Shown here one piece after another: positions 4,604-11,567 of a stretch of DNA of 64,000 nucleotides (the first letter of the stretch is position 1; the number at the start of each line of letters is the position of its first letter). This DNA comes from an uncultured Planctomycetota bacterium (GTDB lineage: Bacteria > Planctomycetota > PLA2 > JAEUHO01). Location: NCBI GenBank assembly GCA_963802335.1, contig CAWDIE010000002.1, positions 172,629-236,628 on the forward strand. The letters run 5' to 3'. The translations under genes and the position numbers were made by a program. The notes beneath the pieces were generated by a model that was not told the DNA's origin, searched no databases, and saw only the letters and a list, made by a program, of their open reading frames with translations.

Positions 4604-7183
4604 TTAGTTGCCCATCGGGATTCCGGTGGCCGGGTAGCCCAGGACCTCGAGGTTCGTCATGAGGTCCACGACGGGCTCCAGCACCGGCATCCACTTGCCG
4701 CCGTTCCACGTCAGATCGTCCGTCGTGAGGCCGGTGCCTTCCAGCGCGGTAGCGGCATCGGCCGGGCGGTAGCCGGACGGATCGTTGGGGGCGAACCAGT
4801 TCAGGACGAAGGTGTTCTTGCTGTCGCGTACGTACGTGGTGTCGCCGTGGATGTCCACGTTCGTTCCAGCCAGCACGTCTTCGCTCGACGTCGCGAGGCC
4901 AAGGTCCACGAGTTCCTGCACCTGGTAGTAGCGCCATGCGTAGACGGGGAACTCGAAGGTGCCCATCGGACCCATGTCCACGAGTTCCTTGCGACCCACG
5001 GGGATCTTGTGGGCGAGAACACCGTTGCCGCCGTGGCAATCCGCGCAACCGGCCGCACCGAGCGCCTGCTCCTTCGGCTGAACGCCGTGTCCACCGAGGG
5101 TGACGTTCGAGAAGGCCGGGTAGTTCGCCACGGCCTGGAGGAACGCCTCCTGCTGATCCGGCGGGAGCTGCTGGGCCTGCATCTGCAGGAACATCTTCAT
5201 GAGACTGCCGTCGGGCAGCTTCATGCTGATCGTGTCCTTCACGCTCTCGTACATCGGATACCACTGGTAGTCGGCCGGGAAGCCCATGGGGCCGTTGAAC
5301 CCCATGAACTGGCGGAGGCCGGCGTTCGATGCCATGAACATGTCGAACAGGAAGTCCTGGCCGGCGTCGATGATGCCGTCGGCGTTCTGGTCGAACTCCG
5401 AGCCGGTCTTGGCGAGGTAGTGCTCGAACCCGAAGTCGGCTTTGTCGAAGTACGCCAGGTTGGGGAAGATCTGCATGAGCGCCATGGTCTGGACGCTCGG
5501 GTCGGGGTTGCCGAAGTCGGCCAGCGTGACCGCGCGAACCTCGTCCGGTGTCATGTCGAGCATGTCGAGCGCGTAGAACGCTTCCGCATTGCTTCCATTT
5601 GCGAAGAAGCGATACATCGAGTGAGCGTTGTACGGGCCGACGTCGTTGTCGACCGTGGCGCCGTTGAAGTAGCGCGAGTCGAAGACCATGCCGTTCGCCA
5701 TCGGCTTGAACGGGACGACCTGGGCATTCGGCATGCCACGCACCGCCAGCGTCTGGGCGAGGAAGCTCGTGCCGCCGTTGAACCAGACCAGCATCGGGCG
5801 GGTCTTGAACGCTTCCCAGTCCGCATCGATGTCGGCCCGGTCCTCCGCGATGTACATGTCTGCGACGACGAGCTTCGTGTCGCGACCGTCTTCGTTCCGC
5901 GCGAACGAGACGTGGCCGCCGTGACCGAAGAGCGAGTAGGTGATGCCGCTCGCCCACGTGATGTGGCAGGCCTGGCAGGAGAACGTCTCGAGGTGGCGGT
6001 CGCTGTGGATCAGTGCGTTGGCTTGCTGCAGGTCAGCGACGTCGTGGCACGTCTGGCAGGTCAGGTCGGTCGGATCGTTCGGATCCGGCGCCGTCCCGGG
6101 AGGCGGCGGCGTGTAGTCCGCCGCGGCCAGGTCGCCGCCGACCATGTGCCCACGGACGTACTTGTGGTCGTCCACGGTATGGCAGGTGGTGCACTGGTTG
6201 GTCGTGCCGGCGAACGGGCCCGTATCGAGGGCCGCGTGGACGTCGTGACCCTCGAGGAACAAGGTGCCGCGCTTGTACCCCGTGCGCGCGTGCTCATGGC
6301 AGCGCAGGCAGGCGTGCTCGTCGGGGTTCGTGATCGACGACAGGGCATCCAGGCTGCGATCCTGCGCTACGGTCGGCCACGGCGTGTCCGGCTGTCCGTC
6401 GCCGGTCGTGTCCACCATCAGCGGGGCGTCGAGGACGCCGTCGCCGTCCGTGTCGATGACGAGGTCCGGCTGACCGTCGTGATTGAAGTCGGCGTTGTCG
6501 CGCGAGTCGCGCGCCACACCCACCAGGGTCGGCGAGTGTGCGTCGGGCGTCGCGGTGCCGGCGATGTCGGCCAAGACGCCCTCGGTCGGGTGCGACTTGT
6601 ACTCTTCCGCGTGACACACCAGGCAGTCGATGCCGCCGTCGATGAGCTGCGTGGCCTGCCCCTGCGGATCGGCGACACCCATCTGCTGGAACATGCTGGC
6701 GAAGAAGCCCTCCATGACCGGCAGGTAGCGACCGACGTGGCACTTGGCGCACTCGCCCAGGCCGATGTTGCTCGTCGAGTTCGTGAGGCCCGTCGTCGCG
6801 GGGAGACCGCAGGCGCGATCGAGCATGCCGTGCGCGCCGCCACCGGGGAACAGCACGCGCGGCGTGCGGCCGGTGAGCTTGAAGTGGACGGAGTCCTTCA
6901 CCTCGGCGACGGCATCTCCGTGGCACTTGATGCAGAGCGAACCAGCGAGGTCGCGGTCGACGTCGTCCTGCGTGACACGCTCGCCGTTGACGATGTAGGT
7001 GGCGCTTGACGGGTCGTACTCGAAGAAGTGCACGGGGACCGTGTTGCCGCCGGGCGGAAGCGGAATGGTGGGCCGGGCTTCGTGCCCGCCGCCGCACGCA
7101 CTGAGTGCGCCGAGGGCGATGAGGGCGGTGAACAGCGACAGGACGAGGTGGCGTGCTGTCTTGCCTTGGCGCGTGTGGGCCAT
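4604..7183 (-). CDS. Octaheme c-type cytochrome lipoprotein, divergent octaheme tetrathionate reductase (OTR)-like, 859 aa
   Basis: Start MAHTRQGK at 7183 with GGAG RBS; lipobox LSAC. Eight CxxCH (CIKCH, CAKCH, CLVCH, CLRCH, CTTCH, CQTCH, CQACH, CADCH) in a 7+1 layout with OTR-like landmarks DVH, WFNG, PFKP and HGVQPKEQALG. Acidic DxDxDG loops. Confidence 0.85.
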   Translation of the reverse strand: MAHTRQGKTARHLVLSLFTALIALGALSACGGGHEARPTIPLPPGGNTVPVHFFEYDPSSATYIVNGERVTQDDVDRDLAGSLCIKCHGDAVAEVKDSVHFKLTGRTPRVLFPGGGAHGMLDRACGLPATTGLTNSTSNIGLGECAKCHVGRYLPVMEGFFASMFQQMGVADPQGQATQLIDGGIDCLVCHAEEYKSHPTEGVLADIAGTATPDAHSPTLVGVARDSRDNADFNHDGQPDLVIDTDGDGVLDAPLMVDTTGDGQPDTPWPTVAQDRSLDALSSITNPDEHACLRCHEHARTGYKRGTLFLEGHDVHAALDTGPFAGTTNQCTTCHTVDDHKYVRGHMVGGDLAAADYTPPPPGTAPDPNDPTDLTCQTCHDVADLQQANALIHSDRHLETFSCQACHITWASGITYSLFGHGGHVSFARNEDGRDTKLVVADMYIAEDRADIDADWEAFKTRPMLVWFNGGTSFLAQTLAVRGMPNAQVVPFKPMANGMVFDSRYFNGATVDNDVGPYNAHSMYRFFANGSNAEAFYALDMLDMTPDEVRAVTLADFGNPDPSVQTMALMQIFPNLAYFDKADFGFEHYLAKTGSEFDQNADGIIDAGQDFLFDMFMASNAGLRQFMGFNGPMGFPADYQWYPMYESVKDTISMKLPDGSLMKMFLQMQAQQLPPDQQEAFLQAVANYPAFSNVTLGGHGVQPKEQALGAAGCADCHGGNGVLAHKIPVGRKELVDMGPMGTFEFPVYAWRYYQVQELVDLGLATSSEDVLAGTNVDIHGDTTYVRDSKNTFVLNWFAPNDPSGYRPADAATALEGTGLTTDDLTWNGGKWMPVLEPVVDLMTNLEVLGYPATGIPMGN

Positions 7184-7347: not shown

Positions 7348-8028
7348 TCAGACCGCGCAGGATCCGCCCGAGGCGCCCACCAGACCGTTCTCCACCGCGT
7401 AGCGAACCGCTTCGGCGCGCGTCTTGAGACCGGTCTTGCGGTAGACCTGCTTCAGGTGGCTGCGCACCGTCGACGGCGCGACGAAGAGCCGGTTGGCGAT
7501 CTCGACGTTCCCCAGTCCCTCGCCGACCAGGCTCAGCACCTTCACCTCTTGTCCGGTCAGGCCCTCGCTGGCCGTGTCGCCAGCCGGCCCCGTCGCGCGC
7601 GTGGCTTGGAGCAGGCGTTCGGTCGCCTCTTCCGAGAGTTGGACCTGGATCAGGCGCTCGGCCGTGACGTCGCAGAAAATGACAGCACGACCGATGCGAT
7701 GCCCGTTGCGATCGACGCAGTTCGTGGCGTTCACCTTCAGGGTGGCGCGTCGCGGCCAACGAATCTTGACCTCCCCCATGCCGCCCTCGGCGGACGTCTC
7801 GATCTCGTGCCAGAACGCGCTGAACTGGGGGTCGCGAAGGACGTGACCGAAGAGCTCCCCCTCGCATTCACCGAACCGCCGACCTAGGACGCCCAGCGCG
7901 GACCGGTTGGCCCACGTGACGCGGCCTTGGACGTCGAGCGTGACCAGTCCGATGCACATGCCCTCGAGGGCCCCGCTGACCAGACAGCTCGAAATGCAGG
8001 GTTTCTCCGGGGGGATCTCGCGAATCAT
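7348..8028 (-). CDS. PAS-domain LuxR-family (HTH) transcriptional regulator
   Basis: PAS-like GLVTLDVQGRVTWANRSA and C-terminal LTGQEVKVL...GLGNVEIANRLFVAPSTVRSHLKQVYRKTG. Start uncertain (8028 or 8061). Confidence 0.88.
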   Translation of the reverse strand: MIREIPPEKPCISSCLVSGALEGMCIGLVTLDVQGRVTWANRSALGVLGRRFGECEGELFGHVLRDPQFSAFWHEIETSAEGGMGEVKIRWPRRATLKVNATNCVDRNGHRIGRAVIFCDVTAERLIQVQLSEEATERLLQATRATGPAGDTASEGLTGQEVKVLSLVGEGLGNVEIANRLFVAPSTVRSHLKQVYRKTGLKTRAEAVRYAVENGLVGASGGSCAV

Positions 8029-8163
8029 GGCGTATCCAGGGTGGGGGGCTCGATGGAACACTTTACCAGTGCCCCCGCGCCACTCCCCGCGGGCGCGCCG
8101 CCATGTTCAGGGCTTCTTGGGTGGGCAGGACGGCCCCCCCGCCGGGGGCTGGGGGGCCGGGGG

Positions 8164-9121: not shown

Positions 9122-9487
9122 ATGCCGGAAACAAGCATCCCTGTTGGCAACCTGGGCCCGAAGGGCCGTCGTCAGCGACGCGTGCTCGGCGTCGTGTTCC
9201 TCCTGCTCGGGCTCGCGGGACTTGCGTGGGTCGCCTTCACCGACCCTCCCCTCGCGCCACGGTTCCTGATCGCCATCCCCTTCTTCGTCGCCGGCCTGGG
9301 GCTGTTCCAGGCCCGCGCTTCGACCTGAGTCGTGCTCGCGTCGCGCGGTCTGCGCGACCTGGACGCGGGCGTAGAGCCGGTCGAGGACGAGGCGGCAAGG
9401 GCAGCGCTTGGGCGCATCGCCCGCGGCGTCTGGGGCAAGACCCTGGCCCTCGCCGCCGCTGGTCTGGTCGTCGCCCTCCTGCTCTGA
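9122..9487 (+). CDS. Candidate small membrane selenoprotein (121 aa, Sec69 encoded by TGA 9326-9328)
   Basis: The frame continues past the TGA for 52 codons with high-GC3 usage (VVLASRGLRDLDAGVEPVEDEAARAALGRIARGVWGKTLALAAAGLVVALLL), ending in a third hydrophobic helix; SECIS-like hairpin 11 nt after the TGA. Confidence 0.75.
9340..9358 (+). promoter_or_regulatory. Bacterial SECIS-like hairpin
   Basis: GTCGCGC-GGTCT-GCGCGAC, a perfect 7-bp stem starting 11 nt after the in-frame TGA. The GGUCU apex resembles the E. coli fdhF SECIS loop. Confidence 0.72.
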
Positions 9488-9525
9488 GGGGAGGGGGCCC
9501 CGACTCGATCACCTGACATCGCACG

Positions 9526-9560
9526 AAAACGCGCCCCGGCGGCAAGCCACCGGGGCGCGT
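9526..9560 (-). terminator. Rho-independent terminator of the HMA gene (possibly bidirectional)
   Basis: Stem ACGCGCCCCGG 9529-9539 pairs with CCGGGGCGCGT 9550-9560, with an inner GGC-AA-GCC pair; short T run on the minus strand; lies between convergent genes. Confidence 0.65.
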
Positions 9561-9586
9561 GGGTTGTTGGGTGCCTGGACGCGCGA

Positions 9587-10192
9587 TCAGCGCGTGGAAG
9601 GCGACGTCCGGCGGACCGGCGTGGAGCGGACGGTAACGGTCCGCGTGCGGGTCGGCTGGGCCGTGGCGGCCGCGGCCGTGGCCGGGAAGCCGGCACGGCG
9701 GCAGGCCCGGATCAGGCCGTTCTGGTTCGTGCGACGGTTGTCGTAGCTCACCTTGGCCACGTTGCGGCCACTGCACCTGACCTCACGAACACCGGGAACG
9801 CGGCGCAGCGCCGCCTTCACGCGTTCGGTGCCTCCCTGGCGGTCCATGTTGTTGACCGACAGGGTTACGTTCTTGACCGGAATCATCGAGGCCGAGTAGC
9901 CGACGCGTCGCACGGCCGAGACCAGCTCCTGGTTACAGGCCTGACCCTGACGGCGAACGACGGTGGCCTCGTCACGACGACGATCCACGGTAGCGGATTG
10001 AACACCACGCACACGGCGCAGCGCCGCGGTCACATCGACCGCGCAAGGGCCTCACCCCATCCCGCTGAGTTGAAGGTAGACACGCTCCGTCTTCACGACG
10101 GTACGTACAGTCGACGTCCCAGCCTCGGCGGCCGCCGCGAACGCGAGCGTCGCCGCGAGGCCGACGGCGGTGAGGATTCGAATACGAGCCAT
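9587..10192 (-). CDS. Candidate secreted heavy-metal-associated (HMA/CopZ/MerP-like) selenoprotein, two HMA domains (201 aa, Sec47 at TGA 10052-10054)
   Basis: ATG 10192 with GGGGAG RBS gives signal peptide MARIRILTAVGLAATLAFAAAAEA, then LQLSGMG-TGA-GPCAVDVTAALRRVRGV, i.e. GMxCxxC with the first Cys as TGA, in frame with ORF 9587..10033. Confidence 0.85.
10025..10043 (-). promoter_or_regulatory. Bacterial SECIS-like hairpin
   Basis: On the minus strand: TGA-GGCCCTTG-CGCGGTC-GATGT-GACCGCG, a 7-bp stem with a G-initiated loop just after the in-frame TGA. Confidence 0.6.
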
Positions 10193-10496
10193 GGGCTGTG
10201 ATCTCCCCGTGACATTTCACAAAGGCGGGGAGGTTACCCGTCCCGGCCGACGCTGATGTCGAAAAACCATGCGTGTTCCAAGCCAGAACCACCGTCGACC
10301 ACGAGCGCACTTCGTCTGAAACCCCGCTTCGTTCATGTTTCCTGAAGGTGTGAGGGGCTCCTTTGAAGTCGAACGCAACAGAGTCTGCACAACGTGGGGC
10401 TAGCTGCCGGCTGGCCCCCGTTCCTTCAGCGCTCATCCCCGATCGCGTTGCCGGTAACCGGGGCCGGTGCGCTCCACGGTAGACCCGCCGATGGTG

Positions 10497-11567
10497 TCAG
10501 GAGCGGACGCGCGAGCGGGGAATGACACGCTTCGGAGGTGGCGTCGCCTCGGCCGGGGGCTGCGAGTACGCCATCGGACGTGCTTCGGTCTCCAGGCCGG
10601 AAGTCCTGATCTCGCCCTCCTCGTCCGAGCTCCAGGTGAGCGCGAGCACCAAGGGGAAGGTGCCCAGCGAGACCAGCAGCATGAAGCCGCTGACCGCCTC
10701 CAGAGGAAGATGGAGCCAGCCCTGCGCCACGCGGACATAGTCGTTGGTGAGGCCGAAGGAGCCGTTCGTCATGTAGAGCGCGCGCGCTGACTCCGTGAAC
10801 GTCAGGCCGGCCGTCAGGACGACGTTGCGGACCAGCAGGAACCAGCCCACGCACGCGTAGAGGGGGCGTTCGGCCTCGTGCTCGATGGCCTCCCCGGTGC
10901 GGGCCCGCCAGAGGAAGATCCCGGCGAAGACCAGCTCGCCGAGGTGGCCGGAGAGCAGGAAGCCCACCTCGCGGATGCCCTCGAAGAACGTGAGCAGGGG
11001 CCAGAGGACCAGCAGGCCGATCGCAAGCGCGCCAAACCGCCCCTGCTGACGCGCGATCACGACACCCGCGACGAGGCCGAGGCCGATCAGCGCCATGATG
11101 ACGGGGTTTTGCGGCTGATGGAACGCCGCGGCGTGCCCGCGAAGGCTGATGGCCGGCCACGCGGGGCAGCCTACGAACCACGAATAGACCACGTGCCCGG
11201 TCTCGTGGAAGAGAGAGCCGATGAACCAACCCATGAAGCGAAGCGTCGGCGTGAGGGTGAACGCGAGTGCCAGAACCATGCCGATGATCAGGTACCGCCA
11301 CCCGACTGCGATCTGCGGGCCCCGCCGCCGAATCGCCGCAGGCAGGGCGACCTCCAGGTGCGGCCGTCCCGGCGTCGTCCAGACCTGGCCGGGCGCGGGA
11401 GGAGGCGACGCCGCGTACACCGACGTCGGGGACACCGGCGCGGGGGCGGCGGACGCGGGAGGGCCATCCAGGTGCGACGCGCGGCCGCGTAGTACACCGC
11501 AGAGGCCGCAGTGGGTGGCGTCCTCCTCGTCTCGTGCGTAGCCGCAGGTGGTGCAGGGGGTGCCCAT
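10497..11567 (-). CDS. Zinc-ribbon membrane protein with HExxH (M50/site-2 metalloprotease-like)
   Basis: N-terminal CTTC...CGLC; LFHETGH within a hydrophobic segment; several TM helices; TND candidate third ligand. Confidence 0.72.
   Translation of the reverse strand: MGTPCTTCGYARDEEDATHCGLCGVLRGRASHLDGPPASAAPAPVSPTSVYAASPPPAPGQVWTTPGRPHLEVALPAAIRRRGPQIAVGWRYLIIGMVLALAFTLTPTLRFMGWFIGSLFHETGHVVYSWFVGCPAWPAISLRGHAAAFHQPQNPVIMALIGLGLVAGVVIARQQGRFGALAIGLLVLWPLLTFFEGIREVGFLLSGHLGELVFAGIFLWRARTGEAIEHEAERPLYACVGWFLLVRNVVLTAGLTFTESARALYMTNGSFGLTNDYVRVAQGWLHLPLEAVSGFMLLVSLGTFPLVLALTWSSDEEGEIRTSGLETEARPMAYSQPPAEATPPPKRVIPRSRVRS

Follow-up and report, generated by a model that had tools for sequence, protein, structure and literature searches.

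Results

Layout of the HMA Gene

The window analyzed here is a 64,000-nucleotide stretch of DNA from an uncultured Planctomycetota bacterium; this DNA is present in salt-marsh and sediment habitats. On its minus strand, it contains a gene for a small protein with a predicted signal peptide and two HMA domains, the first of which carries an in-frame TGA in its metal-site loop. The features of the gene, by window position, are listed below.

9587 to 10192, minus strand: coding sequence, 201 codons plus a TGA stop, with codon 47 as selenocysteine (Sec); orthologues align over the full length
10192 to 10190, minus strand: start codon ATG, read from the sequence
10203 to 10208, minus strand: candidate Shine-Dalgarno-like GGGGAG, 10 nt 5' of the ATG, assigned by sequence alone
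10121 to 10192, minus strand: predicted signal peptide, residues 1 to about 24, with a basic n-region, a 17-residue hydrophobic core, and AEA followed by G
9884 to 10090, minus strand: HMA domain 1, residues 35–103, from Pfam HMA, the AF2 model, and Foldseek, with GMG-U-GPC in the beta1-alpha1 loop
10052 to 10054, minus strand: in-frame TGA, codon 47, read as Sec at the first Cys of GMxCxxC
10025 to 10043, minus strand: candidate SECIS hairpin 1, CGCGGUC/GAUGU/GACCGCG, nt +12 to +30 from the U of UGA
10002 to 10024, minus strand: hairpin 2, conserved and abutting hairpin 1; 9 bp, G-U rich, loop CGUGU
9668 to 9877, minus strand: HMA domain 2, residues 106–175, fold intact and metal site lost (NMDRQGG), from the AF2 model and the orthologue alignment
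9590 to 9667, minus strand: basic C-terminal tail, residues 176–201, of low model confidence
9589 to 9587, minus strand: stop TGA
9522 to 9560, minus strand: probable intrinsic terminator, a 14-bp GC-rich hairpin followed by UUUUCGU, from the RNA fold

The first-pass annotation had placed a signal peptide and a ribosome-binding site 46 codons upstream of an in-frame TGA, at the first Cys of a GMxCxxC motif, in a very Arg-rich protein. Each of these statements agrees with the layout above. As read from the sequence, the N-terminus, MARIRILTAVGLAATLAFAAAAEA, is built like a signal peptide, and this pattern is identical in kind in all eight full-length members of the clade. A lipoprotein reading was rejected because the signal peptide contains no Cys. 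The Sec site lies within LSGMG-U-GPCAVDVTAALR. The mature protein contains 30 Arg in 177 residues and has a pI of about 11.7–11.8; across the eight full-length members, the mature pI ranges from 9.8 to 11.7. Within the tail, the stretch AQPTRTRTVTVRSTPVRR is identical in the database relatives P0004 and P0005 (overall identity 76–89%), which is unusually conserved for a region modeled with low confidence. The gene looks monocistronic, given the 304 nt that separate it from the upstream gene and the hairpin terminator downstream. A scan for consensus promoters and terminators at the HMA gene scored nothing, despite the strong hairpin and U-run after the stop codon.

Genomic Context and Selenocysteine Machinery

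The neighbors of the gene in the window encode an unannotated HExxH membrane protein, DeoC, small membrane proteins, a coiled-coil protein, a PAS-LuxR regulator, and a multiheme cytochrome. The deoC and HExxH-protein neighbors are common to the nearest genus only; other genera have a dUTPase, ABC ATPases, a cyclophilin, or an ECF sigma factor beside the gene. The HExxH neighbor (10497 to 11567, minus strand) is a 356-aa multipass membrane protein with an N-terminal CxxC...CxxC ribbon, an HETGH motif, and no Pfam match; it lies directly upstream of the HMA gene both here and in the nearest genus (60–64% identity, L047 and L048). The cytochrome (4604 to 7171, minus strand) is a lipoprotein-like protein of about 855 aa with weak matches to MtrC/MtrF domains and to cytochrome c7/c3, and the PAS-LuxR regulator at 7348 to 8061 comes after it.

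The comparison of neighborhoods across genera found no conserved functional partner, and mer or cop partner genes are neither near the gene nor conserved among the neighborhoods. A search of the genome, which is 87% complete, found no MerT, and the best MerA match, at 318 bits, stays below the cut-off of 454. The genome carries a CopA-like ATPase elsewhere. Some 33 kb away from the window, it also encodes a Cys-type protein with one HMA domain (L090, G000:C2:139304-139483, minus strand), whose signal is lipobox-like (LLLAAC) and whose site reads WEMHCPGC. This lipobox-like signal together with the Cys site indicates that the genome has an exported Cys-HMA protein as well.

The first-pass reading would have fallen had the genome lacked sel genes. 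Instead, selA (512 bits), selB (307 bits, rising to 329 when its C-terminal piece is included), selD (285 bits), and tRNA-Sec (71.5 bits) are all present, each above its curated cut-off. The selD gene is itself a selenoprotein gene, with one in-frame TGA in its N-terminal part (GAAG-U-AAKL; L003, G000:C1:126618-127540), and selA lies directly upstream of it. Within the family, selA is found in 27 of 29 genomes, among them all seven carriers of the HMA selenoprotein gene.

Fold and Family Membership

Pfam HMA (PF00403) matches the protein in two stretches with 47.3 bits against a gathering threshold of 24.8. An AF2 model built from a seven-row alignment (mean pLDDT 80.9, pTM 0.64) contains two beta-alpha-beta-beta-alpha-beta units, at residues 35–103 and 106–175, with block mean pLDDT values of 84–96 over residues 31–170. 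Confidence is low at residues 1–7 and 9–30 (pLDDT below 50) and in the tail (block means 55–71). When this model was compared with the PDB by Foldseek, tandem HMA pairs ranked first (B. subtilis CopA, 2rml and 1p6t, and ATP7B; E about 1e-9), followed by the single domains of PacS, MerP, and CopZ (rmsd 1.1–1.8 Å, target-normalized TM 0.87–0.94). A sequence profile search of the PDB agrees, with the tandem pairs of CopA and ATP7B at 77.8 and 164.9 bits. The best NCBIfam matches are NF041115, UxxU_metal_bind (78.4 bits, cut-off 95), and MerP, TIGR02052 (75.6 bits, cut-off 92.55); every NCBIfam match falls below its cut-off. In the GMxCxxC loop, domain 1 has G-M-G-U-G-P-C, with Sec for the first Cys, whereas domain 2 has N-M-D-R-Q-G-G where relatives have DMGCSGC or GLxCGxC, so the loss of CxxC from the second domain, recorded at first pass, stands. 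The protein is a Pfam HMA member and, by all computational criteria, a selenoprotein. It does not belong to MerP, NF041115, or NF045683.

Conservation of the TGA Codon

When 61 related genomes were searched, 23 matching places were obtained, and all were read. They comprise seven full-length TGA orthologues, 11 Sec-free paralogues, one truncated copy, and four unrelated single-HMA or ATPase loci. A metagenome scan added one further TGA member (L082) and one unrelated single HMA domain (L083), and a search with the four closest sequences gave three loci, all already among the genome-search matches. The TGA stands at the same alignment column, that of codon 47, in all eight loci with readable DNA, and none has TGC there. 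These loci come from seven species genomes of one Planctomycetota family (the window's own genome, G010, G008, G020, G022, G027, and G012) and from the metagenome contig L082. The site motifs among the seven orthologues are GMG-U-GPC, GLT-U-GPC, GVT-U-GSC, GVT-U-VSC, and DLT-U-VVC. In the 11 Sec-free paralogues, the domain-1 site is degenerate and domain 2 has LHCxxC.

A family profile separates the clade sharply. In the 29 genomes of the family, seven matches exceed 220 bits, each with one internal TGA, and the next match scores 104 bits. In a 401-genome sample of the phylum, matches occur in 11 genomes outside the family, all at no more than 93 bits and without internal stops; as judged from scores and frame lengths, nine of the 11 lie in open frames of at least 560 aa, as expected for ATPase N-termini. 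In the truncated family copy (L056, G011:C122:5355-5675, minus strand), domain 2 is intact (CGGC) and the latter half of domain 1 is present. It is without the N-terminal part that would hold the Sec site, and the stop codons upstream of it stand close to where a 4Fe-4S-type gene ends; either decay of the copy or an assembly join could account for this.

Coding conservation extends to both sides of the UGA, and a single HMA domain spans codon 47. The codons upstream of the TGA show synonymous changes with the amino acids kept, which indicates purifying selection on these 46 codons. In HMA models and PDB chains, the residue that aligns with the TGA is the first Cys, and the TGA is kept among members only 32–50% identical to the window's protein. 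Assembled contigs from the runs of two studies, one of which may be the assembly's own source, cover 10052 to 10054 and list no alternative base. Since the TGA is kept across loci and the contigs of the two studies agree, both a base-call error and a recent nonsense mutation, either of which would have undone the first-pass reading, are excluded. An altered genetic code was also rejected; the HMA gene itself ends in TGA, and the TGAs of the paralogues are terminal stops.

Database Relatives

A word-indexed protein search returned only two close relatives. P0004 (148 aa, 89% identical) begins at a GTG just past the TGA and carries the source name copper chaperone CopZ, and P0005 is a fragment. 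An exhaustive profile search covered 1.84 billion cluster representatives and had 121 matches at E <= 1e-30; 29 of the 150 best matches were read. Ten of these 29 are ORFs of 115–155 aa that start at profile positions 52–61, just after the site; three of the ten are ORFs of loci already identified. P0018 is full length and has W at the Sec column (SGMT-W-VGC). This W is probably the TGA translated under a TGA=Trp table, which would hide a selenoprotein as a Trp variant. In P0048, the domain-1 site is degenerate (GKGA) and the domain-2 site is kept. The remaining matches that were read are generic Cys-type multi-HMA proteins or ATPase fragments. Full-length matches in a single stretch reach at most 175 bits, in comparison to 220–243 bits for true members, and no Cys-form orthologue was therefore found, either among the 29 read of the 150 best matches or among the TGA-column loci. 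As for Cys homologues, the nearest are ordinary HMA domains.

Hairpins Downstream of the TGA

Bacterial SECIS elements are expected to be stem-loops shortly 3' of the UGA with a conserved G or GU in the apical loop. Hairpin 1 fits these general rules of spacing and loop: it has 7 bp and a G-initiated loop, and its stem starts 8 nt after the UGA, just as the first-pass annotation had described it (CGCGGUC-GAUGU-GACCGCG). The local 71-nt fold energy is unremarkable in such GC-rich DNA (z = -0.72). Because fold energy alone is unconvincing here, the hairpin was judged by sequence comparison. In a seven-sequence alignment, whose members, like those behind the other hairpin statistics, are kin and not independent samples, the helix pairs in 85.7% of cells as compared to 33–63% with slid partners. 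Two stem pairs show compensatory changes, and one of these, from U-A to C-G, costs two amino-acid changes (V...T to A...A). RNAalifold with eight sequences recovered the same helix independently, together with the adjacent second helix. The covariation proposed as a check at first pass is thus present in a hairpin that is itself conserved.

Synonymous variation gives a second line of evidence. Among the five closest sequences, it is found at 1 of 9 invariant-residue codons within codons 50–61 and at 31 of 36 elsewhere (Fisher p = 4.7e-5). Such reduced synonymous change is the signature of RNA constraint over coding sequence. Folding of the 24 nt that follow the site gives a mean of -12.7 kcal/mol in the Sec genes (n = 8), compared with -5.7 at the matching site of the paralogues (n = 11), -5.7 in the genes' own domain 2 (n = 8), and -5.4 in domain 2 of the paralogues (n = 11). 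The hairpin is absent at the matching sites of the Sec-free paralogues and of domain 2, whereas it follows the TGA in every Sec copy. Its loop ends in GU in seven of the eight loci; the exception is G012, the most distant member, in which the hairpin is weaker and shifted (-7.2 kcal/mol).

In hairpin 2, synonymous changes in codons 62 and 63 convert G-U pairs to G-C pairs. This second helix may belong to the SECIS or be an accessory element. Even with a permissive threshold, Rfam had no meaningful match in 9400 to 10400 and no family for the hairpin. Comparison of the hairpin with the SECIS of the genome's own selD gave no obvious shared loop motif. Several of the more divergent contigs align to positions 10001 to 10081 alone, an 80-nt stretch that contains the TGA and both hairpins; this stretch is the gene's most conserved DNA across related populations. 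Some short contigs of relatives list a stem change at 10038 and none at its partner, 10030. Position 10030 lies near the ends of these contigs, where we suspect that differences go unlisted, and the comparison is uninformative there.

Evolution within the Sec Clade

In a maximum-likelihood tree, the Sec clade (19 rows) is separate from seven paralogue rows with support of 100/99. Within it, the CxxC of domain 2 is kept in 12 rows and lost in seven, with losses in at least two or three places: the window's protein with P0004 and P0005; P0116 with G008 and P0046; and G020. P0037, the sister of the first of these groups, retains the domain-2 site. The Sec site of domain 1 is kept wherever DNA is visible, and P0048 alone has lost the domain-1 site. 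Because the domain-2 site is lost here and the domain-1 site is lost in P0048, a relay between two sites is not essential.

Discussion

Comparison with Known Systems

The HMA site is the textbook example of a pair of thiolates that binds Cu(I) and Hg(II). The closest familiar protein in layout is MerP (TIGR02052; 1afi and 1osd), which is likewise an HMA protein with a signal peptide for export and has its GMxCxxC loop in the equivalent place. Domain 1 reaches target-normalized TM values of 0.87–0.93 to MerP structures, and the MerP model aligns with residues 15–103. The protein described here differs in that its MerP score stays under the family cut-off, it has two domains rather than one, Sec replaces the first Cys, and it is much more basic. 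It is also outside any mer operon: its neighbors are unrelated and, in the 87%-complete genome, MerT is missing from the search results and MerA stays below its cut-off. The tandem HMA domains of Cu-ATPases (B. subtilis CopA a/b, 1p6t/2rml; ATP7B domains 5–6) are the best two-domain match by both profile and fold. Those pairs are cytosolic parts of pumps with CxxC in both domains, whereas this protein is stand-alone and predicted to be exported, with Sec in domain 1 and no site in domain 2.

Sec-containing HMA proteins had been noticed before, as the first-pass annotation stated, and several have catalogue entries. Among the selenoproteins in the GOS table are a "Mercuric transport protein MerP" (two sequences) and a UxxC cation ATPase (PMC2398784). 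MerT, the UxxC cation ATPase, and NF041115, a "metal-binding protein" with UxxU, are listed in reviews from 2022 and 2026 (PMC9312934, PMC13188914), and MerT-related selenoproteins appear in a 2022 preprint (10.1101/2022.07.06.499078). The GOS protein, compared by its table row, is a predicted MerP-like selenoprotein of metagenomic origin that might belong to the same clade as the present one. NF041115, the best NCBIfam match (residues 34–104), is also a Sec-containing HMA-type metal-binding protein. That family is a 74-position single-domain model with two Sec residues, UxxU (PMC13188914); the protein here scores short of the family's cut-off, has a single Sec, in UxxC, and adds a signal peptide, another HMA domain, and a tail. 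The Sec P-type cation ATPase and the MerT/CopZ fusion NF045683 share UxxC in an HMA motif and a predicted soft-metal Sec ligand (PMC2398784, PMC9312934, PMC13188914). Those proteins are membrane transporters or fusions, unlike the present 201-residue soluble protein with predicted export. The match to NF045683 (66.1 bits vs a cut-off of 375) covers only the CopZ-like end of that model (positions 137–230 of 235) and none of the MerT membrane part.

The first-pass annotation had also called the exported tandem architecture unusual, and only part of that statement survives. MerP is exported, and so are some Cys-type proteins with tandem or multiple HMA domains (P0133, P0007, P0035, and P0086), so that the architecture as such is not new. 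What is new is the Sec-bearing tandem HMA clade, a small uncatalogued Planctomycetota branch below every curated family cut-off. A full-text literature search, whose scope ended short of the supplementary candidate table of PMC4807772, turned up no account of a UxxC selenoprotein with exported tandem HMA domains, in Planctomycetota or elsewhere.

Proposed Function

The evidence favors a stand-alone gene for an exported HMA selenoprotein that captures or hands over a soft metal in the periplasm through a Se/S site, and we give this reading as a whole a probability of about 0.65. Its parts differ in strength. That the TGA encodes Sec in a genuine selenoprotein is very probable, and a role in soft-metal binding is the likelier one by a modest degree of belief. 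The first-pass annotation had arrived at the same exported HMA selenoprotein with a UxxC site, for which it suggested a role as metal chaperone or redox protein. The selenoprotein portion is upheld by the conserved TGA and hairpin, the sel genes, and the agreement of the contigs, and export is indicated by the signal-peptide pattern.

During translation, the UGA at codon 47 would be decoded as Sec, with SelB and Sec-tRNA(Sec) presumably recruited by the hairpin 8 nt downstream, as its anatomy and conservation suggest. The signal peptide would direct export through the Sec translocon, with cleavage predicted near AEA/G, and yield a mature basic protein of about 177 residues that is modeled as two ferredoxin-like HMA domains. 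Domain 1 would present Sec47 and Cys50 in the beta1-alpha1 loop, where MerP, CopZ, and the HMA domains of ATPases hold Cu(I) or Hg(II). A soft metal ion could then be captured or handed over in the periplasm through a Se-metal-S site. Domain 2, having lost its ligands in this lineage, is probably a structural or docking module. In the absence of a mer/cop context or a partner gene, the proposed function rests on the fold and the site. Selenolate has an affinity for Hg. This affinity and the MerP-like layout favor mercury as the metal, whereas the absence of mer genes favors copper. The extreme basicity counts against a metal-chaperone role, which does not account for it.

The least probable of the alternatives, and one that we consider highly improbable, is that the TGA is a true stop, in either a decayed gene or a gene for a 46-residue exported peptide followed by a 148-residue cytoplasmic HMA protein that starts at GTG. 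Automatic annotation does call the 148-residue ORF (P0004, "copper chaperone CopZ"). However, such a stop would split beta1 from alpha1 of one domain, and the 46 codons before it encode a signal peptide and are under purifying selection. It would also have to persist in members of 32–50% identity, at the column of a metal-binding Cys of HMA models, beside a conserved hairpin and in a genome with the full Sec machinery. A second alternative takes its lead from the basicity: the exported protein might attach mainly to a partner protein or to an anionic polymer, either of the envelope or outside the cell, with the HMA fold as a scaffold and Sec of secondary importance. The high pI of all eight members, the conservation of the basic tail among the closest relatives, and the dispensability of ligand sites in one or other domain in several lineages are in line with this idea. 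Yet a costly Sec codon and its SECIS are kept in every member with readable DNA, which argues that the site is what the protein is for, and Pfam and NCBIfam detect no polymer-binding domain. We therefore regard polymer or partner binding as improbable.

UxxC is a classic redox motif, and in such motifs, as here, Sec is the N-terminal, exposed member of the pair. Accordingly, the protein might be a genuine selenoprotein in which Sec47-x-x-Cys50 cycles between the selenol/thiol and selenenylsulfide states, for example, as a periplasmic reductant, a peroxide or polysulfide scavenger, or a partner of envelope redox proteins. MerP itself was crystallized in an oxidized form (1osd), metal-resistance genes are absent nearby, and most bacterial UxxC selenoproteins in the review tables are thiol oxidoreductases (PMC13188914, PMC2398784). 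The fold, however, is HMA rather than thioredoxin-like, all close structural and profile matches are metal-binding domains, many clade members retain a canonical GxxCxxC in domain 2, and no conserved redox partner gene was found nearby. A redox role is thus unlikely, although it deserves more weight than the other two alternatives, and soft-metal capture or hand-over through the Se/S site remains the preferred reading.

Implications

No curated NCBIfam model captures this clade, which means that its members are misannotated wherever they are present. Gene callers either break the gene at its TGA and name what is left as a cytoplasmic "CopZ" (P0004) or print Trp at the site (P0018). A natural HMA site with selenolate as its first ligand, in a small, soluble protein with predicted export, would allow a direct comparison of Sec with Cys in metal affinity, exchange kinetics, and redox stability. 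Nearly all members of the Planctomycetota family have the Sec trait, and the gene adds a metal-type selenoprotein to the family's selenoproteome. A bolder and still speculative proposal, which we hold only tentatively, is that the clade is obligately Se-dependent, an exported HMA lineage with no Cys-form orthologue in which selenolate does what thiolate cannot in the periplasm of sediment Planctomycetota. If so, examples of such a task might be the capture of Hg(II), methylmercury, or Cu(I) against competition from sulfide, or staying reactive in an oxidizing compartment, and the protein would offer the first natural Se-metal HMA site open to biochemistry.
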